DNA from: a virus
Taxonomy: Duplodnaviria > Heunggongvirae > Uroviricota > Caudoviricetes
Direction: 5' to 3' (one strand)
IMG/VR virus record: IMGVR_UViG_2925908680_000005
Coordinates: 1-43,384 of that record
Length of the DNA stretch: 43,384 bases
Part shown: one piece after another, positions 1-43,193 of the stretch
Layout of the letters: each line of letters starts with the position of its first letter
Numbering within the stretch: the first letter of the stretch is position 1
Notes under the pieces: generated by a model
What the model saw: only the letters and a program-made list of their open reading frames with translations
The model's database searches: none
Told to the model about the DNA's origin: nothing
Translations under genes and position numbers: made by a program

Positions 1-1866
1 TCACGTAGTACCCAATATAGTCGTACCATCTATGGTTTCGACTCCCGCCGGGGCCAATAATTGCTGTATCCAGCCAATAGCATGCCCTCGCTCAACGCAC
101 TGGGAGAAAAACGCACGCTGCTTTGCTCTGGTAAAGGCAACAAAAAAAGTGTTTAGCTCTTCACCCCGTTGCGGCGTAAGGCTCCACCAAGTCTGATTGT
201 CGAGCCCATAAAATATCATCGTATGGAACTCAAGACCTTTGCTTTTATGGACGGTCATCAGAGCTACCTGGCCAATACCTTCGAACTCATCCAGCGCCTC
301 CGTCCAGCTGCTGCTGTGTTCTGCACACTCTTTCAGGAGAGTGACAAATCCACTCCACACCCTCTCAAAATCTCTTGCACGCTGGTAAGCGGGAAAGGAT
401 TGCCGAAGCCTAGGGGTCCCGACAAATTCAAGAAGCATCTCTGCAATCTCTTCCGCCGAATCCGGACTAGGCTGGCGATGCGCTAGCTCTGTCCTTAATT
501 TACGGACGAATGCTTCAAGCTTAACCAGCAATCGTTCCTGCGTGAGATCGTTATCCGGATCGGCAGCCTCCAAAAACAGATAGTTCTGCTGGGTCTGCTC
601 CCAGTTTTCCGGGCTTCGCTCCGTCGCTCCCAGGCGGAGTAAAGGAACAAATATACCGGTCAGCTCTTCACCAAGCAGATCCTGTATCTGAATTTCACCG
701 ACTGACCGGGCCGCATTTCTGATCCTGAGACCTCGTGCCGCAAAAGAGGGGGCTATTTCACCCTCAACCTGATCTGCCCGCATTCTGATCAGAATCGCTA
801 CATCATGTGGTGCAACACGCTCTGACTGAACCTCACGGCTCACCCATTCAGCCAGATAATTGTTCTCGTCATCTGCGCTCCGGAATTGCCAGATAGCAGA
901 AACCTCACCTTCGATTTCACGGGTCCCTTGTGCCTGCACTTCTTCCACATTATCGTCTATCCGGCGGGCAATCTCGTGCTGAATACGAACCAGATCCACA
1001 TGTGACCGCCAGTTAGAAAGCAGTGTTATGCGTCTGGCAGCAAAGTCGTTTTCAAACTGGTCAAAGGCGTCATTCATGGCTCCCGCCCATCCCATGATAC
1101 GCTGCTTATCATCGCCGACTGCCGTAAAGACAGCATCGCTACCATCGAATGCCGTTAGCAGCATGTCATACTGGGCATAGGTGGTGTCCTGGTATTCATC
1201 AAGAAAGACGATGGGATATGTTGCCTGTAAGGCCCGGCGGATATATGAATTTTCCTGAAGCAGCAGTTTTACAAGCCTGTTTATCATCGGGAAGGACAGG
1301 GATATCTCGTCGCCCCCGAAGAATTGTTCATGCCAGTAATCTGCTAACGCACGATGTACTTCAGATCCATTTGACAAGTCAATTGGCAGGTCTGTCAGAA
1401 GCAGTCTTCTCTCAAGCTGTTGAGCACTCACTCCGTGATAGCCATGTCGCTCAATAAAATCGTCATAATCCCTACGAAACGGATTAACAATCTGATACGT
1501 ACCGGGCGCATTGAACGGCTCAGGTAAAGCCGGACGAAACCGGTCCAGAAGCCCCTTGGTAAAGGCATCAAAAGTCATCGAATCAAAGCGCCGCGCCTGA
1601 TCTCTCGGGCAACGCTTTGCAACCCTTTCGGCGAGGTTTTGGGCGGCATCTTTTTTAAAGCTGATGGCCAGAATACGTTTGGGTGCCGGACAAATACCTG
1701 TCTGCAGAAGATAGGTCGCCTTCTGTGCCAGAAACTCAGTTTTTCCGGCACCGGCACCAGCGGTCACAAGGATGCTGCTATCGGTTTCACGTAAAGCCTC
1801 CCACGCTCTCCCTTCCAGACCACCGACACCCTGAGGTACCCAGTCGTCTCTGCTTACGCGGGTCAT
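1..1866 (-). CDS. UvrD/PcrA-like superfamily-1 DNA helicase (GajB-like partner of an OLD-family nuclease)
   Basis: 621-aa ORF ending at a stop codon at the window edge; helicase motifs visible in translation: AGAGAGKT (Walker A), DEYQDT (motif II), VGDDKQRI, TVHKSKGLEF, VAFTRAK; start overlaps upstream gene stop by 4 nt. Confidence 0.8.
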   Translation of the reverse strand: MTRVSRDDWVPQGVGGLEGRAWEALRETDSSILVTAGAGAGKTEFLAQKATYLLQTGICPAPKRILAISFKKDAAQNLAERVAKRCPRDQARRFDSMTFDAFTKGLLDRFRPALPEPFNAPGTYQIVNPFRRDYDDFIERHGYHGVSAQQLERRLLLTDLPIDLSNGSEVHRALADYWHEQFFGGDEISLSFPMINRLVKLLLQENSYIRRALQATYPIVFLDEYQDTTYAQYDMLLTAFDGSDAVFTAVGDDKQRIMGWAGAMNDAFDQFENDFAARRITLLSNWRSHVDLVRIQHEIARRIDDNVEEVQAQGTREIEGEVSAIWQFRSADDENNYLAEWVSREVQSERVAPHDVAILIRMRADQVEGEIAPSFAARGLRIRNAARSVGEIQIQDLLGEELTGIFVPLLRLGATERSPENWEQTQQNYLFLEAADPDNDLTQERLLVKLEAFVRKLRTELAHRQPSPDSAEEIAEMLLEFVGTPRLRQSFPAYQRARDFERVWSGFVTLLKECAEHSSSWTEALDEFEGIGQVALMTVHKSKGLEFHTMIFYGLDNQTWWSLTPQRGEELNTFFVAFTRAKQRAFFSQCVERGHAIGWIQQLLAPAGVETIDGTTILGTT

Positions 1867-3824
1867 TCATTCTCTCCTGACAGATTAAGCTTATCCGTAA
1901 CGTACTCAATGAGCGCCCTGAGCTCTACAGGAGCGGACGCAGTAACACCGCCGCCCGCGATACGGGAAAAAGCCGCAAGGTGAGTTTCGGGCTTACTGCG
2001 GCTCAGGAACAGATACGGATACCATTTGAAAGCGTCATCATAATGCGCGGTATACAAGGCAGGATTACCACCTGTTTTCAGCGTACTGACCTTTTTGGCT
2101 TGAATAGCAGCAGCACTACTCTGGGGTCCATTGCCACCTGGATTGGCAACCTGATAAGCGGTTGGAAAGGCGAGCAACATGGCAAAATCGAGATCAATGG
2201 GATAGGAAAAGAAAACTCCTTCCCTCCTGAATGCTTGAAGCCATTGACCTTGCAGGCCTTCATTATAAAGCTGTTGGTCGGTAAGCTGAGCAGCATTAGC
2301 ACCATTGGTGCTCCCCAAATTACTCCCGATAGCGGCCAAATTCTGAAGGCAGCTTCTCATGGCATTCGCCCCACCATGTCGGCGCCCCAGATCAAGATCG
2401 AGCAAAGTGGCATGTGGAATCTCAAGATCATTCAGCAGCCGCCAGAAATGCGCTACGAACCGTCCACCGAGCGGAACGACGGGAACGAATGATGGATCAA
2501 GGGAAACACCCATCTCTTCCGCAATTTTCGGAATAACTACTCGCTCTGAGTCTCCCTCACCCAGGATTACAAATCGCGCAAAATAAAGTTCGGGGTATGC
2601 CTTTACAGCCAGCCTGACATAAACGCTTGCCTCAACATCATCTTCAGGCAGGGTCAGTTCTCGGATCGATGAGCACCGAGCGCTCCGGTCCATACGAAAA
2701 TATCTCACTTCCTCCGGCTCTATCCGGCTCAGGATAGATGGGGAATGGCTAGATAGCAGAACCTGCGCGGAAGGCAGTGCGCCAATCTCTCTCGCCTGCT
2801 TGATGATGCGAGATAAAAAGAACGGTGACAGGCTGTTTTCTGGTTCTTCGATGGCAAGAATCGTCAGGTGAATACGGCGTAACTTATCCTGTTCAAATGA
2901 GCTGTCATCAGCAGGCAAAGAAAATGCTTCCCGCTCGGTTTCGAGCGTTGCCGCTGTAAGAGCGATATGGAACAGAGAGCGCTGACCGTCACTCAGCTCG
3001 GACAAACGACGCTCCTGACCTTCTTCATCAGGCGTAAAAGTAAATTCGGCTTTACGAACAAGCTCCTCAAAACGGTTCTCGATGAGCCTTAAACGCGGTT
3101 TACTGTCTGTATCGGCCTCATGGACCTGTTGCCAACGCTTCGAAAGACGCTCCAGCAGAAACTTCGACGGCTCCTCTTCCTCGAAACTGCTCTGGATCTG
3201 ACCGGCATTAACATAGCTTGCATCCCTAAATGCCGTCGACCATTTGGCAGCCTGCCATAACCGCCCTTTTAGAAGGGCGGTCACTTGAGTCGTCGCATCA
3301 CGATTTGCCGGTAAGTAAATAAACTGGATTGAAGAGCGCTCTACAGCCTGAACCCTGGAACAGTCATCCCATTCAAAATTATCATCCAGGGCTCTTATCC
3401 AGCGTATATCCTCCTCAATTGCTCCCTCCGGCGTACCGTCATCCGTCCATGTTGCTTGTAGTCGTATCCGGGCCTTAAGGGGCTCTCCCTCACCGGAAGC
3501 CGCCATCTGATTAAAGAACTCCGGAACGGCATCAAGAGGAGAAGCGTCTTGCTCTTCCAGTTCAGGGAAGGCAAGTACCGCTTCGACAAACAGACTGTCG
3601 CCAGACTGCAGCTCCTGCCGGTCAATAGGTATGTGAAAATCTCGACGCTGTACCGATCGCTGCGCTGATGTTGTACCAAACAACCTGGACACAGCTTGCA
3701 GCACTGCCGTCTTTCCGGAGCCGTTTCCGCCGACAAGTATTGTCAGTTCTTCCTCAAAATTTAGCTCGACCACCTCATGCCCGAAACAACGAAAATTCTG
3801 TAGCTTTATCTTCTCTATTTTCAT
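1863..3824 (-). CDS. OLD-family ABC ATPase with C-terminal TOPRIM nuclease domain (GajA-like / class 2 OLD)
   Basis: 653-aa ORF; N-terminus MKIEKIKLQNFRCF with Walker A GGNGSGKT; C-terminal TOPRIM-like glutamate (ILGEGDSE) and DxD (LLDLDLG); translationally coupled to the downstream helicase. Confidence 0.8.
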   Translation of the reverse strand: MKIEKIKLQNFRCFGHEVVELNFEEELTILVGGNGSGKTAVLQAVSRLFGTTSAQRSVQRRDFHIPIDRQELQSGDSLFVEAVLAFPELEEQDASPLDAVPEFFNQMAASGEGEPLKARIRLQATWTDDGTPEGAIEEDIRWIRALDDNFEWDDCSRVQAVERSSIQFIYLPANRDATTQVTALLKGRLWQAAKWSTAFRDASYVNAGQIQSSFEEEEPSKFLLERLSKRWQQVHEADTDSKPRLRLIENRFEELVRKAEFTFTPDEEGQERRLSELSDGQRSLFHIALTAATLETEREAFSLPADDSSFEQDKLRRIHLTILAIEEPENSLSPFFLSRIIKQAREIGALPSAQVLLSSHSPSILSRIEPEEVRYFRMDRSARCSSIRELTLPEDDVEASVYVRLAVKAYPELYFARFVILGEGDSERVVIPKIAEEMGVSLDPSFVPVVPLGGRFVAHFWRLLNDLEIPHATLLDLDLGRRHGGANAMRSCLQNLAAIGSNLGSTNGANAAQLTDQQLYNEGLQGQWLQAFRREGVFFSYPIDLDFAMLLAFPTAYQVANPGGNGPQSSAAAIQAKKVSTLKTGGNPALYTAHYDDAFKWYPYLFLSRSKPETHLAAFSRIAGGGVTASAPVELRALIEYVTDKLNLSGENE

Positions 3825-3872: not shown

Positions 3873-5108
3873 CTAAATAACCCACTCATCAATCATATCA
3901 GCCCAGTCCTGCAACATAGATGTACGCTGATCACGATACTCGGCTTTGTTATATATCGCCCTCACACCTTTTTGCTCATGTGCCAGGCATTTCTCTATCC
4001 AATCGGTGTTGTAACCGGCTTCATGGAGTAAGGTACTTGCTGTACGCCTCAGATCGTGGGGTCCAAACTTGGCAAGGGACTGCCCTTCTTTCTGAGCCAG
4101 CTTGTAAGTCATCGTCATCACCCGGTTTAGCGTGGCACTGCTCATGGGCACGTCAGAATCGTAACGCGACGGCAGAACATAATCCGATCCACCGGAGAAC
4201 GTCTTCAAAGCGATGAGAATGTCCATGGCCTGCCTGGATAGAAACACCAGGTGAGGATTTCGCCGCTTCATCCTTTCTTTAGGGATCGTCCAGAGCGCTT
4301 CGCTGAAGTTGATCTCACTCCAGGTAGCATTCGTCAGCTCGCTTTTTCGCACCATCGTCAACAACAACAGTTTTACCGCTGCGCGGATCGATGGTGATGT
4401 ACCAATACGCCCCATGTACTGATACATGATCCTAATTTCTTCGGGCGTCAGGGTTCGATCTCTCGGCTCAAACCTGGCAATGCTTGCTGGCCGCACCAGG
4501 TCTGCTGGGTTCTCAACCTTCTGGCCTCGCTCAGTGGCCCAGCGGTATACCTGGAGTACAATCTCACGCGCATGAACCGCCGTAGCAGGCGCACCGCGCT
4601 CTACGATGGCGTCGGTAAGTGCTCGCAAGTCCTCGTGGGTGATTTCGGTCAGCTTCTGATTGCCGAATTTCGTTTCCAGCTCTCTCGTATAAACCGAGCG
4701 GCGCATATCACGGGTAGAGTCGGCCATCTGGTAGCCACGTAGCCACTTTTCCGCCCAGGCACCAAAGGTTTCAGCCCCTTTTACACGCGCCTTGTCCCGT
4801 GCCTTCTCCTTCGCTGGCGACTTTCCATCAGCGACCATCCGCTTGGCTTCACTAAGTCGCTCACGGGCTTCTGCCAGAGTGATACCCCCAACGCCATAGC
4901 GGCCAAAGGTGATTGTCTCTTGCCTGCCATTGATCGAGTAGTTGTAACGGAATGAGATAGAGCCGGCAGGAGTGACAGCCACATAGAGGCCATCCCGGTC
5001 ATTCACCTTGTAGAGTTTATCCCTCGGCTTGAGGTTGCGCAGCTTGGTATCGGTCAGCAAGAGTCTTATCCTTCTTCGATTCCAATACCATGCTGGAAGA
5101 TTACCCAA
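3873..5108 (-). CDS. int: tyrosine site-specific integrase (P4/CP4-57-like, DUF4102-type N-terminus)
   Basis: 411-aa ORF; N-terminal LTDTKLRNLKP...GLYVAV arm-binding-type domain; C-terminal catalytic region HDLRRTAST...AHE...Y typical of tyrosine recombinases. Confidence 0.9.
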   Translation of the reverse strand: MGNLPAWYWNRRRIRLLLTDTKLRNLKPRDKLYKVNDRDGLYVAVTPAGSISFRYNYSINGRQETITFGRYGVGGITLAEARERLSEAKRMVADGKSPAKEKARDKARVKGAETFGAWAEKWLRGYQMADSTRDMRRSVYTRELETKFGNQKLTEITHEDLRALTDAIVERGAPATAVHAREIVLQVYRWATERGQKVENPADLVRPASIARFEPRDRTLTPEEIRIMYQYMGRIGTSPSIRAAVKLLLLTMVRKSELTNATWSEINFSEALWTIPKERMKRRNPHLVFLSRQAMDILIALKTFSGGSDYVLPSRYDSDVPMSSATLNRVMTMTYKLAQKEGQSLAKFGPHDLRRTASTLLHEAGYNTDWIEKCLAHEQKGVRAIYNKAEYRDQRTSMLQDWADMIDEWVI

Positions 5109-6601: not shown

Positions 6602-6884
6602 GTTTAGACCTCGTTATCTTGAAAATTTGTACCACGTTCCCTTTTGTCCTGATGAGCGCAGCCAGGAACACAACTTTGATGATGACTTCTGACCAGTCGG
6701 CGCTGACGTAGTACCCGTAGAAGGTCCGGATAGGTACACTGGCAGCAACGACGATCAGCAGATAGGCGAGCCAGCCTCCCCACCAGCGATGGCGTGACCC
6801 GTCACGGCGGAACAGAAACGCTCGGATTGCAATGCCGCCGCAGATAGCGGCATTCAGGATGATAAGCAGCTCAGGACTGGTCAT
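6591..6884 (-). CDS. small membrane protein, holin/antiholin-like
   Basis: 97 aa, 2-3 predicted transmembrane segments, directly upstream of endolysin. Confidence 0.45.
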
Positions 6885-7284: not shown

Positions 7285-7380
7285 CGTTTAATGTGCATAA
7301 AGAACCCCCTTAGTTGATGAGCTCATCATACACAATAAACCATATGTGGATTGACTTTGATCGGATAACCATTAACGAAA

Positions 7381-28219: not shown

Positions 28220-29895
28220 TGTGATTGCCCACCCTGACCACTAACTGCATTCGCCATAGCTGACAAAACACTCGGATCCGAAGTTTTAGCTTCGCTTAGC
28301 GTCTTGGCACCCTGTGCCGCCGCCATCCCCATCGCCATCATTTGTTGCTGCTGTTGCTGCTGTGCCCGTTGCTGGCGAGCCTGCTCAACCTGTTCCTGAG
28401 GAACAATGACGGTTGGAGACACTCCGGACATATCAGCGAATGCATCGATCGCCTGATCAACGTTGAGTTTGTCGAGAGCTTCTGGTTTCGCTTGCGCAAG
28501 TTGACCAATGAAGTTAACCGTGGACGCCAGACTGGACAGGCCGATAGACTTCTGCGCCTGAGCCATGACGGAAATGTATTCGACCTTCAGGGGCATGCCT
28601 TCCATCGCGTCAGGCGGTGGCGGCAGCATGTTTTTACGCACCATCATCGAGAAAGCGCGGTCAATGAGAGGATTAAGACATTCGTCGTTCAGACGCTCCA
28701 GAACCGGCCCCAACATCAGAAGCTTTTCTTCTTTCATTTCGATCACCGCTTCAACAGGCATTGAGCGGGTATTGATGTTCTGCAACATCATGAACAGATC
28801 GACGAAGTAGGCGCTGTTGATGGTCTGCCGCGTATCCTGGATGTCGCTGATTAAATCCGCAGTGTTAGGGTTAACCTGATAAACAGGCCTTAATCCTTCC
28901 TGTCCAGTCAGTTGATCTACGTATGTGATGCCACCCGGAAGTAACGAAACACTCTGTGTTCTGAGAGTGGTAGGGGCAACCATCGGAGGGTTTGTCACTT
29001 TGTCGATGATCTGCGACTTGCGCTTCTGGAGAAGCTGCAATGCCTTAACAGGTCCAAGCGCCAGCATACCCGGGCATGATGATCCATAAACATCTTCGCC
29101 GTTAACTTCCCAGCGCGGAGCCATAATTGGAAACTCATCGAATCCGGACTCACGCAACAACTTGTCGTTATCGCCACCAACCTCGTAATAAACCGATTTG
29201 AATGGCTTGTTCTTGCTATCCAGCTTCGATGTATCGCGGTCAATGTTCGGGTAAACCGAGTGCATCACTTCAATCCACTTCTCGTAGGTGCCGCTTTCCC
29301 ACATGCTTTTTACGGATTCGCTGACGTTATTTAGCCCGAACTCCTGAACAAGCTGACGAACAGTCATAGAGAACTTGCGAAAACAGGTGTCCACACTGCC
29401 ACGAGGTGAGTTAGCCAGGTAGTAACTGCCTATCGGGAATGGCATTGTGCGAATAATGTCCTCGTCATCCTCCAGCACCGCCATTGCACCAGTGCTGTAT
29501 GTGCCGAGGCTTCCGTATAACTGCGGAAGAGACTGGTAGAGATTCGACTTATTGAACATATCGTTCATGCGGTTCTGCACCGCCTCAAGCCACAACTTAA
29601 CAGGGCCATAATCCATCATTTCAGGATCTGGCGTAGCCAGGCGAAACCACGGACGCACGGGGCTTGTGATGCCTGACATCATGCCGCTGGCGAGAGTGCG
29701 CGCCGCCATAGTCCCGGTCGAATCAATAATACGTGTATTGCGTCGATCGTTACGGTTGACCTCAGAAGTCAGAAAGCGGGAACCACGCGGGTTGATGTAA
29801 TCACTCAACTCGCGCCAGTGCGGATCGAACGATTGACGCTCGCTTTCAAGTTGTGCGAACTGTTTGTTCAATCGCTCTTTAGTTGTTTCCGCCAT
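28216..29895 (-). CDS. portal (head-to-tail connector) protein
   Basis: 559 aa, first large gene of head module, GGAG ribosome-binding site. Confidence 0.75.
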   Translation of the reverse strand: MAETTKERLNKQFAQLESERQSFDPHWRELSDYINPRGSRFLTSEVNRNDRRNTRIIDSTGTMAARTLASGMMSGITSPVRPWFRLATPDPEMMDYGPVKLWLEAVQNRMNDMFNKSNLYQSLPQLYGSLGTYSTGAMAVLEDDEDIIRTMPFPIGSYYLANSPRGSVDTCFRKFSMTVRQLVQEFGLNNVSESVKSMWESGTYEKWIEVMHSVYPNIDRDTSKLDSKNKPFKSVYYEVGGDNDKLLRESGFDEFPIMAPRWEVNGEDVYGSSCPGMLALGPVKALQLLQKRKSQIIDKVTNPPMVAPTTLRTQSVSLLPGGITYVDQLTGQEGLRPVYQVNPNTADLISDIQDTRQTINSAYFVDLFMMLQNINTRSMPVEAVIEMKEEKLLMLGPVLERLNDECLNPLIDRAFSMMVRKNMLPPPPDAMEGMPLKVEYISVMAQAQKSIGLSSLASTVNFIGQLAQAKPEALDKLNVDQAIDAFADMSGVSPTVIVPQEQVEQARQQRAQQQQQQQMMAMGMAAAQGAKTLSEAKTSDPSVLSAMANAVSGQGGQSQ

Positions 29896-30543: not shown

Positions 30544-30620
30544 GTGGCATTAGCTCAGTTGGACAGAGCAACCGCCTTCTAAGCGGTTGGTCGCAGGTTC
30601 GAATCCTGCATGCCACGCCA
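30544..30620 (+). tRNA. tRNA-Arg (anticodon UCU), phage-encoded
   Basis: cloverleaf folded by hand: 7-bp acceptor GTGGCAT/ATGCCAC, D-arm GCTC-AGTTGGACA-GAGC, anticodon stem ACCGC/GCGGT with loop CTTCTAA, T-arm GCAGG-TTCGAAT-CCTGC, discriminator G, encoded CCA. Confidence 0.85.
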
Positions 30621-30807: not shown

Positions 30808-30850
30808 AAGGTGTGAATCATGAAATACGAATTCGATGGATTTTGATGTC

Positions 30851-30862
30851 GTGACATGTCAC
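30851..30862. repeat. palindrome GTGACATGTCAC (copy 2 of 3; 14-mer CGTGACATGTCACA)
   Basis: read directly. Confidence 0.7.
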
Positions 30863-30866
30863 AAAC

Positions 30867-30893
30867 AGCCAGCCGATGAGCTGGCTTTGTTTT
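30867..30893 (+). terminator. intrinsic terminator 3 downstream of tRNA
   Basis: AGCCAGC-CGATGA-GCTGGCT stem then TTGTTTTA. Confidence 0.55.
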
Positions 30894-30936: not shown

Positions 30937-32412
30937 TTAAGCATAGGGATCGTAATCTGTAATGGCCTTGCCTTGCTGGTTCTGCTGACCGGGAATTCGC
31001 AGACGCTTCGACACCGGGAAAGCAAACGTCAGCAGTAGCGCATCGCCTTTACCCGGCGAACGCCCAAGCCGCTCCTTGATATCTTCCTTCGGTTCGATAA
31101 CGATTTTACCGTCCACGCGAACTTTGTACTCTGCCGCCGACAGGTCATCCGCTGTTTCCTGGTCATCCAGCATGCCGCCCAGCCTCAGCCATGTCTTGCA
31201 TGCATTGAACATCTCCCCACGCTTGTTAAGCATCTGCGGGTCAGTGGACGCACCGCCGAACGGAACAAGTTGCCATGTACGTCCCCAGCCATCACCGATT
31301 GACTTCAGACCAGTTCCGTAACCGAAGTCGATGAACACCGCGTCAGCCAGGTACTGGTCTTCAAAGTCAGCGATACGCTTCGCCATAATCAGATCGTCAG
31401 TGGTCTTGTTGCCAGTCCACAGCACCTTACTGTGCAGCCCCTGCCGCAGGTATATCACAGCGTCATCAACGCCGGAATATGCCGGGTCAACGCCGATTAT
31501 CACCGGAGCATGTGCAACCTGCGCAGCGGTTACCACCCGTTTCATTGCCTCGTCAGTAAGGCCGGTAGGGATAAACTGCAATTCAGATGCATCAGGGAAT
31601 ATGCCACGCACACGGATTTTAACGAAGTCGCTGTCTTCCCCGTAGTCATCAACCCATTTCTGCAACTGCTGTTTGTTAGTGCCTTCCACCGTCCGGCTGT
31701 CAATCTGCGCAGTTTTCCAGCGGTGTTTATATTTGCGGAAACATTCGCGAAAACGCCCGGTGTTACGTGTAGGGTTTCCGAACGCCACCCAGATAATCTC
31801 AGTGTCTTCGTCCGTAAGCGCACCCTCAGCGACTTCCCACACCAGATCCGCAATGTTCGACGCTTCATCGAATACCACGATGATGCGTTTGCGCTCGTTG
31901 TGTAGTCCGGCGAATGCCTCAGTGTTGTGCTCAGACCAGGGGATTGCGTCAGCTCGCCACCGCTTGTCGTGCCCAGGGTCATTGCTGTACATCGCGGTAG
32001 CGGTACAGGTAAACCAGTCTTTCGTGATAGCAAGGTTCGACCACTTGATAATTTCCGGCCAGGTCTTCGTTCGTAGCTGGTTGTCGGTGTTGGCGGTCAC
32101 CACGACCTTACAATCCTCGCAAGTGGACATGCCCCAGTTGATCAGCATTGAGATGAATGCGGATTTACCAATACCGTGACCAGAAGCACGTGCCAGCATA
32201 AGCGGCTGATAACGCGTCTCTGGATTCTGCAGGTGATCACGTATCTCTCGGAACGCATCAGCCTGCCACTGACGTGGGCCGGTGGCATGTGCCAGTTCAG
32301 TCCCCTCTTCCCCCCACGGGAACGCATAGAGGGCATAGCCAAGCGGATCGTGAGTGAACCCTGCAATATCCTCGATCAACTGCTCTTCAGGAGATAACGC
32401 TGTATCTGTCAC
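30937..32412 (-). CDS. terminase large subunit
   Basis: 491 aa with ATPase-type N-half and nuclease-type C-half; overlaps small subunit gene stop. Confidence 0.85.
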   Translation of the reverse strand: MTDTALSPEEQLIEDIAGFTHDPLGYALYAFPWGEEGTELAHATGPRQWQADAFREIRDHLQNPETRYQPLMLARASGHGIGKSAFISMLINWGMSTCEDCKVVVTANTDNQLRTKTWPEIIKWSNLAITKDWFTCTATAMYSNDPGHDKRWRADAIPWSEHNTEAFAGLHNERKRIIVVFDEASNIADLVWEVAEGALTDEDTEIIWVAFGNPTRNTGRFRECFRKYKHRWKTAQIDSRTVEGTNKQQLQKWVDDYGEDSDFVKIRVRGIFPDASELQFIPTGLTDEAMKRVVTAAQVAHAPVIIGVDPAYSGVDDAVIYLRQGLHSKVLWTGNKTTDDLIMAKRIADFEDQYLADAVFIDFGYGTGLKSIGDGWGRTWQLVPFGGASTDPQMLNKRGEMFNACKTWLRLGGMLDDQETADDLSAAEYKVRVDGKIVIEPKEDIKERLGRSPGKGDALLLTFAFPVSKRLRIPGQQNQQGKAITDYDPYA

Positions 32413-33005
32413 TGATTACCATCCTGACGTTCTTTGAGTCGCTTCCTGGCTGCTGCTATGCGATCAGCAATTGTCACATTCACATTAACATCCAGACGTT
32501 CTTTGAACGCGTTGACATCAACATGCTTACCAATCAGCTCAAGGTTCTTCACCTTGTCAGGCCATTTAATTTTTTTGAGGATTGTCTCTATCGAATCCTC
32601 GTTCATGTTCATGATGGTCGATGACAGATCAAAGCCGCTAAGCGTAGTGCGCCAGATTTTCGGCCACTCGCGGATTGGCTTAAGGCTCCCATCGTCGTTG
32701 AGGATGTCGATCACGTCCATCTGGTCGATCTCCACCAGGCGCCTGAGAACGTAATCAGCACTGACGCGCATTCGTTTGTTGCGCTCCTCCATCAGCTCGG
32801 CAATCCGTTTTTGAATGCGTTCATCGCGCATCATGACACTGGCTTTAACTGCCGCTGTATTTGGGGAGAATCCTGCGTTAATCGCTGCCTGAGTCTGGTT
32901 TTCAGGCGTTTTGATGTATGACTGGCAATAAGCCTCCTGCATTGCTGTTAGTGGCTTAAATTGCGTTGATTTACGTTTATAGGTTTTAGGTTCAGCAGGC
33001 ATCAT
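32409..33005 (-). CDS. terminase small subunit
   Basis: ORF track extends to 33083, but the first 26 codons are low-complexity and overlap a repeat/operator, so the start was taken at the internal Met pair (MMPAEPKTYKRK). Confidence 0.6.
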   Translation of the reverse strand: MMPAEPKTYKRKSTQFKPLTAMQEAYCQSYIKTPENQTQAAINAGFSPNTAAVKASVMMRDERIQKRIAELMEERNKRMRVSADYVLRRLVEIDQMDVIDILNDDGSLKPIREWPKIWRTTLSGFDLSSTIMNMNEDSIETILKKIKWPDKVKNLELIGKHVDVNAFKERLDVNVNVTIADRIAAARKRLKERQDGNQ

Positions 33006-33022
33006 AACCACCGTGGTAATAG

Positions 33023-33037
33023 TTACCGTTGTGGTAA
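33023..33037. promoter_or_regulatory. perfect operator palindrome TTACC GTTGT GGTAA at the head of the packaging/late operon, within a short direct repeat (GTGGTAATAGT x2)
   Basis: read directly. Confidence 0.55.
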
Positions 33038-33115
33038 TAGTACCATGCAAAATAAAGCCGCCATAGTTGGCGGCAGTATTCAAAACCCATCAAATTCATC
33101 ATGCATAATCTACTC

Positions 33116-33127
33116 GTGACATGTCAC
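33116..33127. repeat. palindrome GTGACATGTCAC (copy 3 of 3; 14-mer CGTGACATGTCACA)
   Basis: read directly, between the 33124 gene stop and terminase small subunit. Confidence 0.7.
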
Positions 33128-33465
33128 ACTATTAATTTCGTTTCATGCCAGCCTTTAGTCACCCAGCATTGCGAGTCACCATTGCACGGGAATGAATTCA
33201 CAGGAACTCTCTCGCCGCACTTACCGCAACGTTTTCTGCTGATCGATTTTATACGCCCGCGCACGCGTGCATCATCCTGGCGGATCAGTAACGCTATATA
33301 CTCACCAAATTCGTAAGGCGCACGCCCGGGGCGACGCGTGGCACAGTTACGCTCCAGCATTTCAATTTCCTGAGCATCAAGCACAATCTCCAGCTTACGC
33401 ACACCAGATGCAGCTTGTCTGGCTCTCTGAGCGGCTTTGCGCTCTGCTGCTGATTTAGCCATCAA
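33124..33465 (-). CDS. hypothetical protein with C-terminal Cys-rich zinc-ribbon-like segment (possible regulator)
   Basis: 113 aa; CGKCG...CNGDSQC; immediately upstream of terminase genes. Confidence 0.4.
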   Translation of the reverse strand: MMAKSAAERKAAQRARQAASGVRKLEIVLDAQEIEMLERNCATRRPGRAPYEFGEYIALLIRQDDARVRGRIKSISRKRCGKCGERVPVNSFPCNGDSQCWVTKGWHETKLIV

Positions 33466-33736
33466 TATTTACCTTTATCGCGAACACCTTTACCGGTTTA
33501 TCACCGAAGTGCGGATGTGTGATTGTCTTGATTTCATATCCGTCATACGGGACATCAATTCTGCGACTGAAGTCGTCGCGCTTCGGATATCCCTTTGTGA
33601 TAATCAGGCGGTCATACTCCCGGAACATAATTCGCTTATTCCAGTAGTCATTACACAGGCGATACTCTTCTGTTTTCTCCCCGCGAATCATGGCATCGAA
33701 GTATTCACCTTTGACAGCAAGCTGTAGGTTAGCCAT
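33455..33736 (-). CDS. hypothetical protein, possibly ASCH/PUA-like
   Basis: about 93 aa from MANLQLAVKGEYFDAMIRGEKTEEYR; family assignment is from memory only. Confidence 0.3.
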   Translation of the reverse strand: MANLQLAVKGEYFDAMIRGEKTEEYRLCNDYWNKRIMFREYDRLIITKGYPKRDDFSRRIDVPYDGYEIKTITHPHFGDKPVKVFAIKVNIDG

Positions 33737-33996
33737 TACCGCACCTCCAGTCTCCATACCGCCTGACCAATCCGGCTGGCATAGGTATCTTTGGATACTG
33801 TTCCGTCTTTAGCCATTTCCATAAGAATTTTGCGCAAATCTGCCGAACGCCATTCTTCATCAGGAAATTCCTTCTCCATTGCCAACCGCAGATTCCAGGT
33901 TGCTATCGTGAATGGATATTCCCCGCCGAGAGCTTTATCTTGCAGGGCAGCACGGGAACGCATCACCTGCAAAACCTTCTCTTTTACATCCATCAT
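33736..33996 (-). CDS. hypothetical protein
   Basis: 86 aa ORF in the same operon. Confidence 0.35.
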   Translation of the reverse strand: MMDVKEKVLQVMRSRAALQDKALGGEYPFTIATWNLRLAMEKEFPDEEWRSADLRKILMEMAKDGTVSKDTYASRIGQAVWRLEVR

Positions 33997-34568
33997 TTTG
34001 CCTCCTGCGGCGGTTCTGGTAACGGCATCCAGTGAGTTACGTCATCCAAGATATTTCCTGATAAATACGTGAAAGCCCTATATTTTTTGTAATCAATTGG
34101 ATTTACAACCCAGTTCCAATATGCGGCCACGATTTCACCTTGACTAAATGCCAGTAACATTTTGGTGTCTTCCGGCATTCGCTCACTACAGCTTATCCAA
34201 CCATCAGGAGTTACCGGAGAGTTGCCTGATAGCTCGTTCAACTTGTAAGTTTGGCTTACAGGTTCGGCTCCCAGTTCCGCTATGCGCTTTTTTGCTGTTT
34301 CCAGTTCGTTCAGCAGTGTTAGCACGGTAGCCGGATTGGCTGCGGCGATGAATTCAGCATTGGCCTGCTGTTCCATTTGGAAATCTTCATCGAAACCGCT
34401 TTCAGGATGCGCTCCTTCAATTCTGCAAATGGGGATATATCCAGCAGCCTCGCGATGAATTAGCGCATCATCACCATCAAATCGGCCCTCTCCATATTCG
34501 AGCGACCACTCGCCACACGTTGCTTTTTCTGCCTTAGCACGCAGTGCCTGATAGTCAATCTTGTTCAC
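33993..34568 (-). CDS. Ead/Ea22-like protein with C-terminal DUF551-like tail
   Basis: N-region DYQALRAKAEKATCGEWSLEYG...AAANPATVLTLLNELE is typical Ea22-like; C-terminus ends WMPLPEPP; probable GTG start at 34568 with GGGAGA ribosome-binding site (ORF track extends to 34649). Confidence 0.5.
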   Translation of the reverse strand: MNKIDYQALRAKAEKATCGEWSLEYGEGRFDGDDALIHREAAGYIPICRIEGAHPESGFDEDFQMEQQANAEFIAAANPATVLTLLNELETAKKRIAELGAEPVSQTYKLNELSGNSPVTPDGWISCSERMPEDTKMLLAFSQGEIVAAYWNWVVNPIDYKKYRAFTYLSGNILDDVTHWMPLPEPPQEAK

Positions 34569-34857
34569 TGGTTGTCTCCCTTGCTGGGCTTTCGAATGTA
34601 TCAAACTCAAACAACTTAACCACGTCATCAAACAGGACATAATCGCCATCAGAATCTTCAGTCATGTCAGCGCCACAATCCTGACCGAACGAGTCACAAC
34701 CATCCATATCAAGCTCGTATCGCTTGAGTTTTGCGATATTTGATAAATTCAGCGCCAGTACAGCCAGGTCATAAACCTCTTCGGCAGTGACATCGCTGTT
34801 CAGTCCCATTTCATGGCGATATATGATTTTTTCTACTCGTTGTTTTGTGATTGTCAT
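34555..34857 (-). CDS. hypothetical acidic protein
   Basis: 100 aa. Confidence 0.35.
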   Translation of the reverse strand: MTITKQRVEKIIYRHEMGLNSDVTAEEVYDLAVLALNLSNIAKLKRYELDMDGCDSFGQDCGADMTEDSDGDYVLFDDVVKLFEFDTFESPARETTSEQD

Positions 34858-35336
34858 TTTTGCTCGCCTCCCTGTTCTTCCAGAAAAATACGCATAGTCT
34901 CAAGCATCTCTTCGGTGTCATACGGTGACAACTTGTCACGCAGGATGTGTTCAATGCTGTTAATGAACTTGCGGATTGCTTTGCGTTCAATTTCAGCCAG
35001 GAAAGCATCGGTGGCTGGTGCTTCTGGTGCGTGCATAATTGCGACCACCATTGCGTCATGCATACAGTCAATGTTGCAACAGCCAACTGCTTCTGCTGTT
35101 TTGAACTCACGATACATGTTTTTGAACGCATCTGTTTTACACCATGCGTTTATGTCCTTAAATGCCGCATTCTCCGCCGCCAGCGCATTAGCACGCACCA
35201 GTTGCACTTCCAGTTGCGTTGCCAAATCGCTGATCAGCTTTGCCACACTACGCATATCAACGGCACCACATTCAGCTTTCAGTTCCGAAGCCATCTCATG
35301 CCCGGCGGCAACTAACCCTTTGATATTACTTTCCAT
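34854..35336 (-). CDS. hypothetical protein
   Basis: 160 aa. Confidence 0.35.
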   Translation of the reverse strand: MESNIKGLVAAGHEMASELKAECGAVDMRSVAKLISDLATQLEVQLVRANALAAENAAFKDINAWCKTDAFKNMYREFKTAEAVGCCNIDCMHDAMVVAIMHAPEAPATDAFLAEIERKAIRKFINSIEHILRDKLSPYDTEEMLETMRIFLEEQGGEQK

Positions 35337-35397: not shown

Positions 35398-36006
35398 TCA
35401 TGCCGATCTATTTTTCATCAGTGATTCATAAAACTTTTGCCACTTATGCCGACCGAAATTAGCCTTCGAGTTACAGCTAGAACAAAGGCAAATAAGGTTC
35501 TCCTGACGACAGTCTTGCTTGTCGTAATTGATGTGATGAGTTGTTAGCCTTTTGTCTGTTCCATCACAACCTGGGTTCTGACAAGTAAAACCATCTCGCT
35601 CAATAACCCTCTTGCTCGTTTCTCGGAAATCCCACGGATACGGCAATCTCGATAATCCACCAGACCAGTTTGGATTTCCTTCCCCCTTCATCAGAGAAGA
35701 ACGCATTATGTTGGAACACTGTTTCGAGCAGCATTTATGACGCTTCTCATGACTCAAGAAAACGGAGAACGAAGATCCGCATACGCAGCATATTTTTAAT
35801 ACTCGCTTTAGTTCCCGATTTACCGTCTTGCCTCGCTGTGAAATTCCTACACACTGAAGTGAGCAGAACCTTGAAGATGAGTTGGCTCGCTTAACCTGAT
35901 ATTGCCTGCCACATACGGAGCAAACCTTTTCGATTTTCCCACCCTTCCAATTCGGGTTTTTATCACCGGATACAATCAATCCCGCAGCATTGGGCTTCTC
36001 GCTCAT
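35398..36006 (-). CDS. HNH endonuclease
   Basis: 202 aa, Cys-rich with HNH-like signature (HHINYDK...N...CxxCN); AT-rich codon usage. Confidence 0.65.
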   Translation of the reverse strand: MSEKPNAAGLIVSGDKNPNWKGGKIEKVCSVCGRQYQVKRANSSSRFCSLQCVGISQRGKTVNRELKRVLKICCVCGSSFSVFLSHEKRHKCCSKQCSNIMRSSLMKGEGNPNWSGGLSRLPYPWDFRETSKRVIERDGFTCQNPGCDGTDKRLTTHHINYDKQDCRQENLICLCSSCNSKANFGRHKWQKFYESLMKNRSA

Positions 36007-36356
36007 AGTTCCTCAACCTCCCATCCACCACCGAGCTTTTTAGGTTTTGGATAAGCAACCTGAAAGACAAACGGATAGCTGTCTGCCGCAACCTTCATCT
36101 TGACTCTCGCATCGTCAGTAAAGACTGACTTACTTCCCTTAACGTCCACCATCACCAACTGCCCGTCAGCCAACATCACGGCAAAATCTACAGTCAGGAA
36201 GCAGTTGTCAGCTAACCGCAGCTTGATACCCTCGAATCGATACCAGGCGATTTCCCCTGCACGTTTACGCTGCTCAAGGTGCTGGCAATACGCAGATTCT
36301 GTTTTGTTCATCTGTCCTGTTTTGAGTCGACCAAGAGCCTGTATCTGTTTTCTCAT
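36003..36356 (-). CDS. small PD-(D/E)XK-like nuclease fold protein (VRR-NUC/DUF1064-like)
   Basis: 117 aa with D...VDVKG...K pattern. Confidence 0.35.
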   Translation of the reverse strand: MRKQIQALGRLKTGQMNKTESAYCQHLEQRKRAGEIAWYRFEGIKLRLADNCFLTVDFAVMLADGQLVMVDVKGSKSVFTDDARVKMKVAADSYPFVFQVAYPKPKKLGGGWEVEEL

Positions 36357-37274: not shown

Positions 37275-38143
37275 GCTTCAGGGCTGTTCCAGTGCGGAAC
37301 GTTGTTATCAGGTAATGTTGATTGCTTCTGTCTGCTAATCTGCAGCCGCCTTGCCAGCTTCTGCTCCCACTGTGCCTGATGGTATGCCTTACCCTCAGCC
37401 ATCCAGTAAATTCTGAACTCTGCAAGTTCCTGTGCCGTTGGCAGACTGTCCAGGTAGATCCCCTGCAATGAGCTTTTCCGAAGAAAGTCATCTGATGGCT
37501 GCCATTGTTCATGCATGACAAATTTTCCTAATTGCCCTGGCCCACCAGGAGGAACAAAGTTATTCATCACGGCGTTGTTTGCGCCGGGGTCATGAGGCAC
37601 AGAATCCCCGGTTTTTGTCCTGCTCTCCCTCTCTTGGTTAAATGACTGGTTATATGACTGGTTCTGGATCCCGTTTTTGGGATCATTCAACATCCCGTTT
37701 TTGGGATCATTCAACATCCCGTTTTTGGGATCATTCAACATCCCGTTTTTGGGATCATTCAACATCCCGTTTTTGGGATCATTCAACATCCCGTTTTTGG
37801 GTATATTCCCGTTTTCGGTAACATTACCGTTTTCGGGTTCATTACCCCCTTCCCGGTTGCCTTTAATGTTCCCGTTTTTGGTTATATTAAGAGAGAAAAC
37901 CCGCACTCTTTTCGTCGCTCCCTTTCTCTCTCCGGTATCTGAAATAAGCCCCATTTTCATGAGCGATATAAGCCCGGCCTGCACGGTTTTTTTATTCAAG
38001 CAAGTGTCTTTAACGAGGCGTTCTATGCTGGGGTAGCAGAGGTTATATTCATCGGCTCTGTCAGCCATCGAGAGCAGTATGAGCTTTAATGATGAGCTGC
38101 CTGGATCTGTCTCCCAGGCCCAATCTGTTGCATGTCTGCTCAT
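37256..38143 (-). CDS. replication initiator O-like protein with in-gene iterons
   Basis: 295 aa; N-terminal winged-HTH-like domain; central GMLNDPKN x5 peptide repeat encoded by tandem 24-bp DNA repeats. Confidence 0.7.
   Translation of the reverse strand: MSRHATDWAWETDPGSSSLKLILLSMADRADEYNLCYPSIERLVKDTCLNKKTVQAGLISLMKMGLISDTGERKGATKRVRVFSLNITKNGNIKGNREGGNEPENGNVTENGNIPKNGMLNDPKNGMLNDPKNGMLNDPKNGMLNDPKNGMLNDPKNGIQNQSYNQSFNQERESRTKTGDSVPHDPGANNAVMNNFVPPGGPGQLGKFVMHEQWQPSDDFLRKSSLQGIYLDSLPTAQELAEFRIYWMAEGKAYHQAQWEQKLARRLQISRQKQSTLPDNNVPHWNSPEAWEDFL
37666..37881. repeat. iteron array (candidate origin of replication): five perfect tandem 24-bp repeats (37681-37800) flanked by degenerate 14-25-bp copies
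   Basis: unit GATCATTCAACATCCCGTTTTTGG repeated head-to-tail five times; degenerate CCGTTTT(C/T)GG-containing copies on both sides. Confidence 0.7.
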
Positions 38144-38158
38144 GATTAATCTCCGCTA

Positions 38159-38359
38159 TCAGCTTGAATGTTGTGGGGAGGAATTAATCATGATCTGCTT
38201 AATCTCTGCCCTGATGCGACGGTTTGATTCCATGGTGCACTCAACACAGTGTCCGTTGTAAACCCAGCGCTCACTGTCATGTCCGTGCTTACATGGTTTT
38301 CCGGTGTAGTAGCGTTTAAGTCCGCGCTTTGCGGCATCAATACGTGTAATGATTTCCAT
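38159..38359 (-). CDS. small zinc-ribbon protein in the cII position
   Basis: 66 aa from the MEIITR methionine; CKHGH...CVEC. Confidence 0.35.
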   Translation of the reverse strand: MEIITRIDAAKRGLKRYYTGKPCKHGHDSERWVYNGHCVECTMESNRRIRAEIKQIMINSSPQHSS

Positions 38360-38420
38360 GGTAAGCCCTGTTATTAGTATTGGGATTACGGTTATTTTGT
38401 GCTGACACAAAAAAAAGATC

Positions 38421-38454
38421 AACCAAATTTGGTTTTTTATTACCTTTAAGGTGC
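38421..38454 (-). promoter_or_regulatory. 14-bp perfect palindrome AACCAAATTTGGTT with adjacent T-run (tR1-like position) plus imperfect operator copy TTACC TTTAA GGTGC (38440-38454)
   Basis: read directly between cro-like and cII-position genes. Confidence 0.35.
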
Positions 38455-38509
38455 GAATAGATATGAAAAGACCGCCGGATGGCGGCCTACAGAGGGTTGT
38501 GGCTGGATA

Positions 38510-38740
38510 TCATGAGTAGAAGAAGTATGCCAGTTCTGCTTTTGAGCGCAGCCATTGTCTTGTTTTACAGGCTTTAAAAAGCCCATTCATCAATACCTTA
38601 CCTGGCATTTTGCGCTTACCTGTTAAGTGAGTCTGGATATAGTGACTCGTCGTTCCGGCTTCCTGTGCGAAGGCTTCACGCTCATCCGGAGTAAGTGCAA
38701 GCCAGTGCTTTTTGAAATCGAAATGTCCGTTATCGCTCAT
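38510..38740 (-). CDS. Cro-like small DNA-binding regulator
   Basis: 76 aa, divergent from repressor gene. Confidence 0.5.
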   Translation of the reverse strand: MSDNGHFDFKKHWLALTPDEREAFAQEAGTTSHYIQTHLTGKRKMPGKVLMNGLFKACKTRQWLRSKAELAYFFYS

Positions 38741-41892: not shown

Positions 41893-42141
41893 ATGAAAGG
41901 TGCATTAGGTAAGAAGGAACTCCTGGCGGTGGTGCCACTGTCATGGAGCACTATCGACCGTATGGAGCGCGCAGGGGAATTTCCTAAACGCTGGTATATC
42001 ACCGATAAACGCTGCGCATGGAACCGCGATGAAGTTGAGCGTTGGCTTGATGAACGTCAGGCAGCAAGCCCGGCAGAGTTCCAGGGTAAAAAACCTCCTG
42101 TTCAGCAACGTGTATATCGTCCTGTGAGCAACGCGGCATGA
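41893..42141 (+). CDS. AlpA-family DNA-binding protein (excisionase-like regulator)
   Basis: 82 aa with AlpA-like HTH (LLAVVPLSWSTIDRMERAGEFPKRW...ERW). Confidence 0.6.
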   Translation: MKGALGKKELLAVVPLSWSTIDRMERAGEFPKRWYITDKRCAWNRDEVERWLDERQAASPAEFQGKKPPVQQRVYRPVSNAA

Positions 42142-42250
42142 GTGTGCTGCTAAGGCACTGGAGCAAATGGTCAGGATGGTACTTATTCCTGGCCTCTGTT
42201 TCAGCATGGCTTTATCTGCTGGCATTAATTTTCAGAGAGGGTTGGATTAA

Positions 42251-42550
42251 GTGAGAAAGTTAAGCCGACTTGAAAAATATCACATGAACAAGGTTTCAAT
42301 GCGCAGCCATTCAAAGGTTGTTGCCGTTACTCCTGCGGCGATAGAGATCGAAAAACGCGCGATTGAAAGAGAGAAAAAAGGGCAGTTCCGCATTGCCGCT
42401 CACCTTTGGCTTCAGTGTATGGATGTTGCTTCTGGTGATGTTGAGCGTGCAAGGATCGCGGTTCGCAGGGACCAATGTATCACAAAAGGTAACGGCCTTC
42501 GCCGTGGCGACTATAGCGGCATAGGATGTTGTGGGGTGGTTTATGACTAA
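42251..42550 (+). CDS. PerC/ANR-like small regulator (putative)
   Basis: 99 aa (GTG start, or about 88 aa from the ATG at 42284); central A.E.E..G.F..AA.LW motif. Confidence 0.35.
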   Translation: MRKLSRLEKYHMNKVSMRSHSKVVAVTPAAIEIEKRAIEREKKGQFRIAAHLWLQCMDVASGDVERARIAVRRDQCITKGNGLRRGDYSGIGCCGVVYD

Positions 42551-43193
42551 GAAATACACACTAATCTATGCAGATCCACCCTGGGTATACCGGGACAAAG
42601 CCGCAGATGGTAATCGCGGTGCCGGTTTTAAATATCCGGTTATGAGTGTGCTGGATATCTGCCGCCTTCCTGTGTGGGATTTGGCCGATGAAAACTGTCT
42701 GTTGGCCATGTGGTGGGTGCCAACACAACCACTCGAAGCGCTAAAAGTTGTTGAAGCCTGGGGATTCCGTCTGATGACCATGAAGGGCTTCACGTGGATA
42801 AAATGTGGTAGTCGACAACCAGATAAACTGGTTATGGGTATGGGACACATGACTCGCGCCAATAGTGAAGATTGCCTGTTTGCAGTAAAGGGAAAACTAC
42901 CTCCGCGCATTAATGCAGGGATCGTTCAGTCATTTACCGCACCGCGGCTTGAGCATTCAAGAAAACCAGATGTCGTTCGTGAAAAACTTGTGCAATTGTT
43001 AGGCGATGTTTCTCGCATTGAACTGTTCGCCCGCCAGACGTCTCATGGCTTCGATGTTTGGGGTAATCAGTGCGAAGACCCGGCAGTGCAACTACACCCT
43101 GGATACGCGTTGGATATTGGCGGATTAACAAATGCATTCAGCAATGCTCCGCTGTCACCAACAGACAACCAGGGGCGGGAGCGTGCAGCATGA
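42543..43193 (+). CDS. MT-A70 family DNA N6-adenine methyltransferase
   Basis: about 216 aa from the MTKKYTLIYADPPW methionine; DPPW catalytic motif. Confidence 0.75.
   Translation: MTKKYTLIYADPPWVYRDKAADGNRGAGFKYPVMSVLDICRLPVWDLADENCLLAMWWVPTQPLEALKVVEAWGFRLMTMKGFTWIKCGSRQPDKLVMGMGHMTRANSEDCLFAVKGKLPPRINAGIVQSFTAPRLEHSRKPDVVREKLVQLLGDVSRIELFARQTSHGFDVWGNQCEDPAVQLHPGYALDIGGLTNAFSNAPLSPTDNQGRERAA

Follow-up and report, generated by a model that had tools for sequence, protein, structure and literature searches.

The window analyzed here comprises all 43,384 nucleotides (nt) of the IMG/VR virus record IMGVR_UViG_2925908680_000005 and represents a Uetakevirus region, of the epsilon15/phiV10/TL-2011b type of podoviruses; directly upstream of its terminase gene terS it carries a small open reading frame (ORF), ORF6 (33124-33462, minus strand; 112 amino acids counted from its ATG), the stop codon of which is embedded in a perfect 12-base-pair (bp) palindrome, GTGACATGTCAC. 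The recurrence of this combination in other phages indicates that the ORF6 gene and the site form one inherited module, in which the symmetric site is probably the operator of a dimeric ribbon-helix-helix protein, ORF6; more tentatively, and at somewhat less than an even chance, ORF6 and its sites may control transcript elongation or termination at operon junctions. The original prediction had placed a 14-bp palindrome beside the gene upstream of terS: the linkage of the two goes far beyond chance, but the perfect palindrome measures 12 bp, and it overlaps the TGA stop of ORF6 instead of lying next to the gene.

The palindrome occurs in three exact copies in the window. Copy A (33116-33127) holds the ORF6 stop at its positions 2-4 (G-TGA-C); copy B (30851-30862) lies 4 nt past a bidirectional terminator (30867-30886) that follows terL; copy C (13700-13711) lies 3 nt past the stop codon of the structural operon's final gene (13715-14128) and is directly followed by a terminator hairpin (13682-13699). 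Epsilon15 and SPN1S have exactly three perfect copies each, at the same three map positions as the window (2142 and 2174, respectively, for copy B; 19517 and 19662 for copy C), together with ORF6 genes that are only about 75% identical (epsilon15) or likewise divergent (SPN1S). SPN1S has in addition a near-perfect fourth palindrome at 26722, GTGACATGTCAT, which overlaps the Rz stop at the end of the lysis operon; in the window, a fourth match to the pattern GTGAC-NN-GTCAC, GTGACCCGTCAC, is found inside the holin gene (6794-6805). This generalized motif, GTGACNNGTCAC, is present four times in the window, three times each in N15, Vibrio phage K233 and Pectobacterium phage ZF40, and once in a P2-like Yersinia phage, against an expectation of 0.02-0.03 per genome from dinucleotide-preserving shuffles; it is absent from lambda, in whose record no ORF6 homologue is annotated. 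The GenBank record of epsilon15 annotates repressor, integration host factor, RNase III and terminator sites, but not the palindrome.

In many phages, the site keeps its place at the end of the ORF6 gene. It overlaps or abuts the stop codon in Uetakeviruses, in ZF40 (TGTGACATGTCACA), in Chlobot, where the ORF6 homologue is located in the early-left region, and in a 63-kb Klebsiella phage; it is also found at the stop of N15 gp46 (CGTGACTGGTCACG, 34% identity), of the homologue in the P2-like Yersinia phage (TTGTGACGCGTCACAA, 41% identity) and of that in locus L186 (TTGTGACAGGTCACAA, 35% identity). In two Mu-like prophages, the site falls within the reading frame in another register, encoding V-T-G-H. 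Among 154 IMG/VR loci with a homologue, 132 have the TGA stop at site positions 2-4, and another seven have the site 8-9 nt past a TAA stop. The central dinucleotide varies (AT, CT, GT, TT or AC in the IMG/VR loci; TG, GC, CG or AG in other lineages), and the DNA around the site cannot be aligned between lineages; the half-sites are nonetheless retained, which argues for selection.

The protein belongs to phrog_536, a family that bears the unproven label "transcriptional regulator" and includes epsilon15 gp49, phiV10 p55, TL-2011b gp20 and N15 gp46. The family amounts to 625 close clusters, and to 147 clusters at 50% identity in a representative library, from podo-, sipho- and myovirus prophages of enterobacteria, Vibrio and Aeromonas; no Pfam family covered any of the 54 full-length members that were scanned and aligned. 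In this alignment a basic N-terminal motif, RKxxQRxR, and a helix, PYxxxEYIxxLIRxD, are conserved, C79 and C82 are invariant, and P87, G95 and C99 are nearly so; the Cys-rich, zinc-ribbon-like tail noticed at the outset is thus a real feature of the family. The AlphaFold model of ORF6 (predicted local distance difference test, pLDDT, 91.7) consists of a basic N-terminal helix, a ribbon-helix-helix core with the strand-helix-helix succession of the Arc/MetJ/CopG fold, and a long helix with a Cys4 zinc module (C79, C82, C93 and C99, spaced C-x2-C-x10-C-x5-C). Ribbon-helix-helix proteins dimerize and thereby form a DNA-reading beta-ribbon. For the C-terminal half, TraR and YbiI were the only near-significant profile matches in the PDB (E 0.04-0.05), and hhalign gave a probability of 52% against TraR alone and of 72.6% against a TraR profile, the latter over TraR residues 6-66; the TraR/DksA zinc finger family PF01258 matched none of the 54 members. 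The C-terminal helix-zinc-helix part may be a diverged module of the TraR/DksA type.

The surroundings of the three perfect copies bear on what such a protein might do. In the window, copy A is followed by an 8-codon remnant ORF, MHDEFDGF* (33080-33106, minus strand), by an intrinsic terminator here called tA (33049-33074, minus strand; GCCGCCAACTATGGCGGC followed by TTTATTTT), by two ATTACC-N5-GGTAAT-like sites (33004-33038, minus strand) and then at once by the ATG of terS at 33005. Equivalents of tA are annotated as rho-independent terminators in epsilon15 and phiV10. The terS gene (Terminase_2; 32409-33005, minus strand) starts at this ATG, as in TL-2011b and epsilon15; the 224-amino-acid frame that opens at TTG 33083 is too long, since the terminator sits within its 5' extension (33006-33083), which spans tA and the operator-like sites. 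All three perfect copies lie within 0-41 nt of terminator hairpins, each beside the intrinsic terminator of one operon (early-right, terS-terL and structural, respectively); relatives differ in their terminator sequence at copy B, where the palindrome is nonetheless invariant. Such locations at terminators and operon ends fit control of elongation or termination better than promoter activation. Taken over the whole family, terminator-like hairpins were found near 52 of 122 palindrome contexts and near 94 of 600 random positions; a family-wide association with terminators was rejected, because the excess derives mostly from the Uetakevirus lineage.

The remnant ORF after copy A has a counterpart beside copy B, MKYEFDGF* (30820-30846, plus strand), also of eight codons. 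Both look like what deletions have left, start plus tail, of paralogous small genes; relatives have the intact versions, namely a 70-amino-acid gene that lies between copy A and the terminator in L017-type phages, and a phiV10 p03-like gene at copy B. As a separate observation, P0121-like loci (L102-L180) carry a hairpin, CCYGWTGCAGCRGG, about 12 nt past the palindrome and before the Shine-Dalgarno sequence of the next gene, with compensatory changes from CCTG/CAGG to CCCG/CGGG; this next gene, judged by its predicted N-terminal sequence, is putatively AlpA-like (HTH_17).

In the proposed mechanism, ORF6 as the last product of the early operon would bind the palindromes and, once bound, would alter the behavior of RNA polymerase at operon junctions; the likeliest effect would be that termination at tA is suppressed and early transcripts extend into terS-terL and beyond. 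We infer read-through of tA as the more likely direction for three reasons: ORF6 is the last early gene, terS has no visible promoter of its own, and no Q-like protein was found. ORF6 may also contact RNA polymerase. The lack of a recognizable Q-like antiterminator, pointed out in the original prediction, is borne out by the absence of a Q-type Pfam match among 30 ORFs of the window (ORF1-ORF6 and 24 others) and of an annotated Q protein in the epsilon15 record. A consensus scan found no sigma-70-like promoter between tA and terS; upstream of tA the sole candidate is GTGACA-18-CATGAT, with GTGACA of copy A as its -35 element, and epsilon15 and SPN1S have GTGACA-17-TAAATT at the same place. The wider claim, that the family constitutes a new class of site-loaded elongation regulators in which the ribbon-helix-helix part parks on sites at the protein's own stop codon and at terminators and the TraR-like module engages RNA polymerase, so that terminators are ignored or obeyed, is rather unlikely at present; such a regulator would, in Uetakeviruses, be the missing Q-independent late switch.

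Three further candidates at copy A were rejected. TAGATT after the palindrome is not a conserved -10 element, as close relatives have TGGATT, TATATT or TGGGTT; a read-through signal, such as a selenocysteine insertion sequence (SECIS)-like element, at the embedded TGA finds no support, as the frame stays open for 50 codons here and for eight in the P0121-like group and never joins terS; and an antiterminator structure pairing with tA has no upstream complement to the tA stem. Rfam detected no RNA family at the palindromes.

Several observations weigh against this proposal. The binding of ORF6 to the palindrome is a prediction from comparisons among genomes. The TraR likeness of ORF6 is weak, and the second CxxC pair of TraR is missing; the SPN1S homologue (38348-38656) has the conserved basic N-terminal helix replaced (MATTTTRRQN...), yet this phage keeps its three sites. 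The gene-end site is missing in the distant homologues of loci L091, L182, L183 and L184, of an Aeromonas phage and of K233, which has its sites elsewhere, one of them 19 nt upstream of the terS start codon; all three sites of ZF40 are in early regions. In phages other than Uetakeviruses, what comes directly after the gene-end site is usually not a terminator but the Shine-Dalgarno sequence of the next gene. In about 25 related Uetakevirus loci the intact 70-amino-acid gene separates copy A from tA, so that a tight spacing of site and terminator is not required, and copy B is located downstream of its terminator in the late direction. The ATTACC-N5-GGTAAT motif, annotated as a repressor-binding or operator site in epsilon15, precedes late operons; these may have their own repressor-controlled promoters, in which case read-through would be needless. 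Finally, ORF6 homologues coexist with Q-type antiterminators in N15 (gp40), ZF40 (gp25) and the metagenomic prophages L091 and L182, and with Mor in the Mu-like prophage L185, and they occur in P2-like phages, directly after replication gene A. Given this coexistence with Q, Mor and P2-type regulators, late-gene antitermination is not the general role of the family, and the suggestion of the zinc-ribbon protein as a late activator fails as a family-wide function; a late-switch role specific to Uetakeviruses is possible.

The ATTACC-N5-GGTAAT-like sites deserve an account of their own. With up to two mismatches, they are found in the window at 7380, 10973, 11353, 30206, 33004, 33022, 36359, 36421, 38824, 39536 and 39598, that is, upstream of the lysis, tailspike, portal and terS operons and at the immunity region; this distribution suggests that the prophage repressor may directly guard every late operon.

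The best surviving alternative, possible if doubtful, reverses the sign of the effect: ORF6 on its palindromes would act as a roadblock or insulator that reinforces termination at operon ends and limits read-through and antisense transcription between convergent units. The location of sites at operon ends and between convergent genes agrees with this, and copy B, 4 nt past a terminator whose U-tract is short, is ideally positioned for a roadblock; many sites lie between a stop and a Shine-Dalgarno sequence or in coding DNA, where only elongation would be affected, and the operator-like motifs at the late operons suggest promoters that would make read-through dispensable. The expected timing contradicts a roadblock, since an early protein would increasingly bar transcription of terS, or of gemA-mor in the Mu-like case, and between tA and terS no promoter-like site was found.

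Regulation of promoters at the palindrome by ORF6 as a classical activator or repressor, for example of a late promoter before terS, is clearly unlikely. The promoter candidates that overlap copy A and its equivalents in epsilon15 and SPN1S would suit such an operator, as would TTGACT-15-TATACT 8 nt past the site in the Klebsiella phage, the N15 site at 28550 within the spacer of a candidate TGTGCA-17-TAAAAT, and the position of the gene directly upstream of terS, as for RinA-type activators. Yet the position of the site relative to the candidate promoters differs among lineages, with no fixed spacing to a conserved -10 element (TAGATT varies), and no -10 element accompanies copies B and C, which are both located between convergent genes; in many relatives the gene-end site abuts the next Shine-Dalgarno sequence, which leaves no room for a promoter. 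The promoter-activation form of the earlier suggestion is not sustained by these comparisons.

An RNA element is quite improbable. In this explanation, ORF6 would bind a GUGA-CNNG-UCAC hairpin through its arginine-rich and zinc parts and so govern how the following gene is translated or how stable the 3' end of the mRNA is, which would suit the many loci with the stop codon in the 5' arm and the Shine-Dalgarno sequence directly after it; the flanks often extend the complementarity with differing sequences (CC..GG, TT..AA, C..G), and the leader that connects copy A with terS has a better fold than its shuffled versions (z = -3.96). The fold, however, is that of a classical double-stranded-DNA-binding ribbon-helix-helix protein; the stem would have only 4 bp, the flanks are non-complementary at the Uetakevirus copies, and some sites are situated at junctions between convergent genes, on the non-coding side. 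More remote still is a role in DNA architecture or exchange, either bridging between the sites, about three per genome, in the manner of MatP and matS, to which the identity of the half-sites with those of matS would point, or the marking of junctions for accessory-gene swaps: hhalign gave MatP a probability of 0.7%, the spacing is off by 1 bp, the sites come with no associated recombinase, and some of them lie inside essential genes (N15 repA). Least probable of all is binding of the palindrome by another phage or host factor with a merely historical link to ORF6, which the comparative basis of the pairing and the SPN1S sites kept beside an altered ORF6 N-terminus might allow, but against which stands a linkage that holds at protein identities as low as about 35% and spans more than one reading register as well as phages of podo-, sipho- and myovirus type.

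ORF6 is the last of six tightly packed small ORFs on the minus strand that, as originally described, fill the interval 33124-35336 at a nin-like position. The late and early-right genes of the window are on the minus strand, in the order O-like (DnaT/HTH_36) gene, lambda-P-like replication gene, DUF1064/resolvase-like gene (36003-36356), HNH endonuclease gene (35398-36006), the six ORFs, terS, terL, and portal and structural genes; the block forms the distal, nin-like part of the early-right operon and is a mosaic accessory region. A 4-kb query gave the best DNA matches to PAS61, ZX5, TL-2011b, phiv142-3 and phiV10, which covered only about 45% of the query, in pieces, and this patchiness identifies the block as mosaic. 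All six ORFs matched PHROG families (E 1e-44 to 1e-60) and are thus genuine genes; their starts and stops overlap (ATGA at ORF1/ORF2 and at ORF3/ORF4, TAATG at ORF4/ORF5, ATGGCTAA at ORF5/ORF6), so that the block forms one translationally coupled unit. Three mechanically called starts should be shortened, to GTG 34568 for ORF3, ATG 33736 for ORF5 and ATG 33462 for ORF6. As a whole the block is ordinary, with ORF1 to ORF5 as exchangeable accessory genes, and none of the six proteins was assigned to a defense system.

ORF1 (34854-35336, minus strand, 160 amino acids) belongs to phrog_492, ORF2 (34555-34857, minus strand, 100 amino acids), whose ATG overlaps the ORF1 stop, to phrog_3126, and ORF4 (33736-33996, minus strand, 86 amino acids) to phrog_2814, all three being PHROG families of unknown function; ORF1 had no match, and ORF2 and ORF4 no informative match, in Pfam, NCBIfam, PADLOC or PDB sequences. 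ORF3 (33993-34568, minus strand, 191 amino acids) is the Ead/Ea22-like protein that had been proposed for the block; its N-terminal part matches Ead/Ea22 PF13935 above the gathering threshold (E 6e-19; 69.4 bits, cut-off 27), and its C-terminal domain matches DUF551 PF04448 (E 1.1e-21; 77.9 bits, cut-off 22). The mechanical ORF extends to 34649; this long version matches its PHROG and Pfam families only from residue 28-30 onward, and the likely start is GTG 34568, which has the Shine-Dalgarno sequence GGGAGA. ORF5 (33455-33736, minus strand, 93 amino acids; phrog_625) is taken to start at ATG 33736, where its PHROG match begins. Its proposed ASCH likeness is weak: the phiV10 homologue is named "ASCH domain-containing protein" in RefSeq, but the match of ORF5 to ASCH PF04266 (E=0.082, over 23 residues) is below the Pfam cut-off; its single-sequence AlphaFold model is poor (pLDDT 53).

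Elsewhere in the window, a Gabija defense pair (1-3824, minus strand) adjoins the integrase gene (3873-5108); GajA occupies 1863-3824 (PADLOC E 5e-238), and GajB (1-1866; E 6e-215) touches the window edge. At 11405-11586 (plus strand), Rfam identified isrK (74.7 bits) followed by the C4 antisense RNA (79.5 bits); an isrK-C4 pair is a small-RNA control region of the P1/N15 type that usually precedes an antirepressor gene. A tRNA-Arg gene (anticodon UCU; 30544-30620, plus strand) lies opposite to the late genes, between terL and the portal operon; C4, isrK and this tRNA were the only known RNA families found in the window. Five tandem 24-nt repeats within the O-like replication gene (37677-37797; peptide MLNDPKNG five times) are probably origin iterons. 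The early-left operon (41893-43193, plus strand) contains an AlpA-like gene, a gene for a PerC-like transcriptional activator (42251-42550) and one for an MT-A70 adenine methylase.

The epsilon15/phiV10-type phages include O157 typing and reporter phages as well as Salmonella serotype-converting phages, and no described late-gene regulator was found for them; a literature search yielded nothing on the 12-mer, the ORF6 family, N15 gene 46, or late control in epsilon15, phiV10 or ZX5. The ORF6-palindrome module offers a concrete and easily tested regulator candidate, and phrog_536 is now delimited as a widespread uncharacterized family. A predicted operator of such simplicity helps annotation and might also serve as a compact genetic part.

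Comparison with known systems places the module between several precedents. MatP organizes the chromosome and is not a transcription regulator; it combines a four-helix bundle, a ribbon-helix-helix domain and a coiled coil. ORF6 and MatP share a ribbon-helix-helix protein with helical extensions, GTGAC...GTCAC half-sites, and few dispersed sites per replicon. The matS site, GTGACRNYGTCAC (PMC6907758), has 13 bp with a center of 3 bp, compared with 2 bp in the ORF6 site. ORF6 lacks the four-helix bundle and any detectable sequence homology to MatP; homology was rejected, and only the likeness of the half-sites remains.

The C4 zinc-finger proteins TraR and DksA bind in the secondary channel of RNA polymerase. 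ORF6 resembles them in its layout of helix, CxxCGxx(I/L)P zinc knuckle and helix, with borderline statistics; in contrast to their CxxC-x17-CxxC finger, the second CxxC is replaced by C-x5-C, and the acidic N-terminal tip of TraR is absent, with a DNA-binding domain in its place. As a small zinc-containing or DNA-binding protein and a possible late-gene switch, ORF6 also recalls P2 Ogr and P4 Delta and the RinA/ArpU/LtrC regulators, and its gene position next to terS matches that of RinA-type activators; yet there is no homology, and the sites do not occupy fixed promoter positions. Ogr/Delta and other known late regulators were rejected as relatives, since no profile matched and ORF6 does not show the CxxC-x22-CxxxxC spacing; in P2-like phages, moreover, members of the ORF6 family close the early operon, and Ogr would already fill the role of late activator there. 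With regard to Arc, Mnt, CopG and AmrZ, ORF6 differs by its extra basic N-terminal helix and its C-terminal helix and Cys4 zinc module, and its sites are at the 3' ends of genes and operons whereas theirs are in their own promoters; the module would thus represent a ribbon-helix-helix regulator with a predicted operator, unusual in the location of this operator and in its zinc module.

Q antiterminators rely on a binding element in a constitutive promoter, a promoter-proximal pause and a downstream terminator. At copy A the terminator (33049-33074) is present; the promoter-like hexamers are weak, and their register is not conserved across lineages. ORF6 is unrelated to lambda Q in sequence and fold (no Q Pfam family matches ORF6 or the 54 members), its site has no conserved promoter or sigma-dependent pause element around it as qut does, further sites lie at other terminators, and homologues coexist with true Q proteins. 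The order of elements nevertheless resembles that of Q, qut, PR' and tR' in lambda: the last delayed-early gene has the site just downstream, behind which come a short leader, a strong intrinsic terminator and the late genes. For lambda Q and ORF6 alike, a site beside the protein's own gene favors action in cis; by analogy, the proposed circuit would follow the logic of lambda Q with qut and tR', carried out by an unrelated protein.

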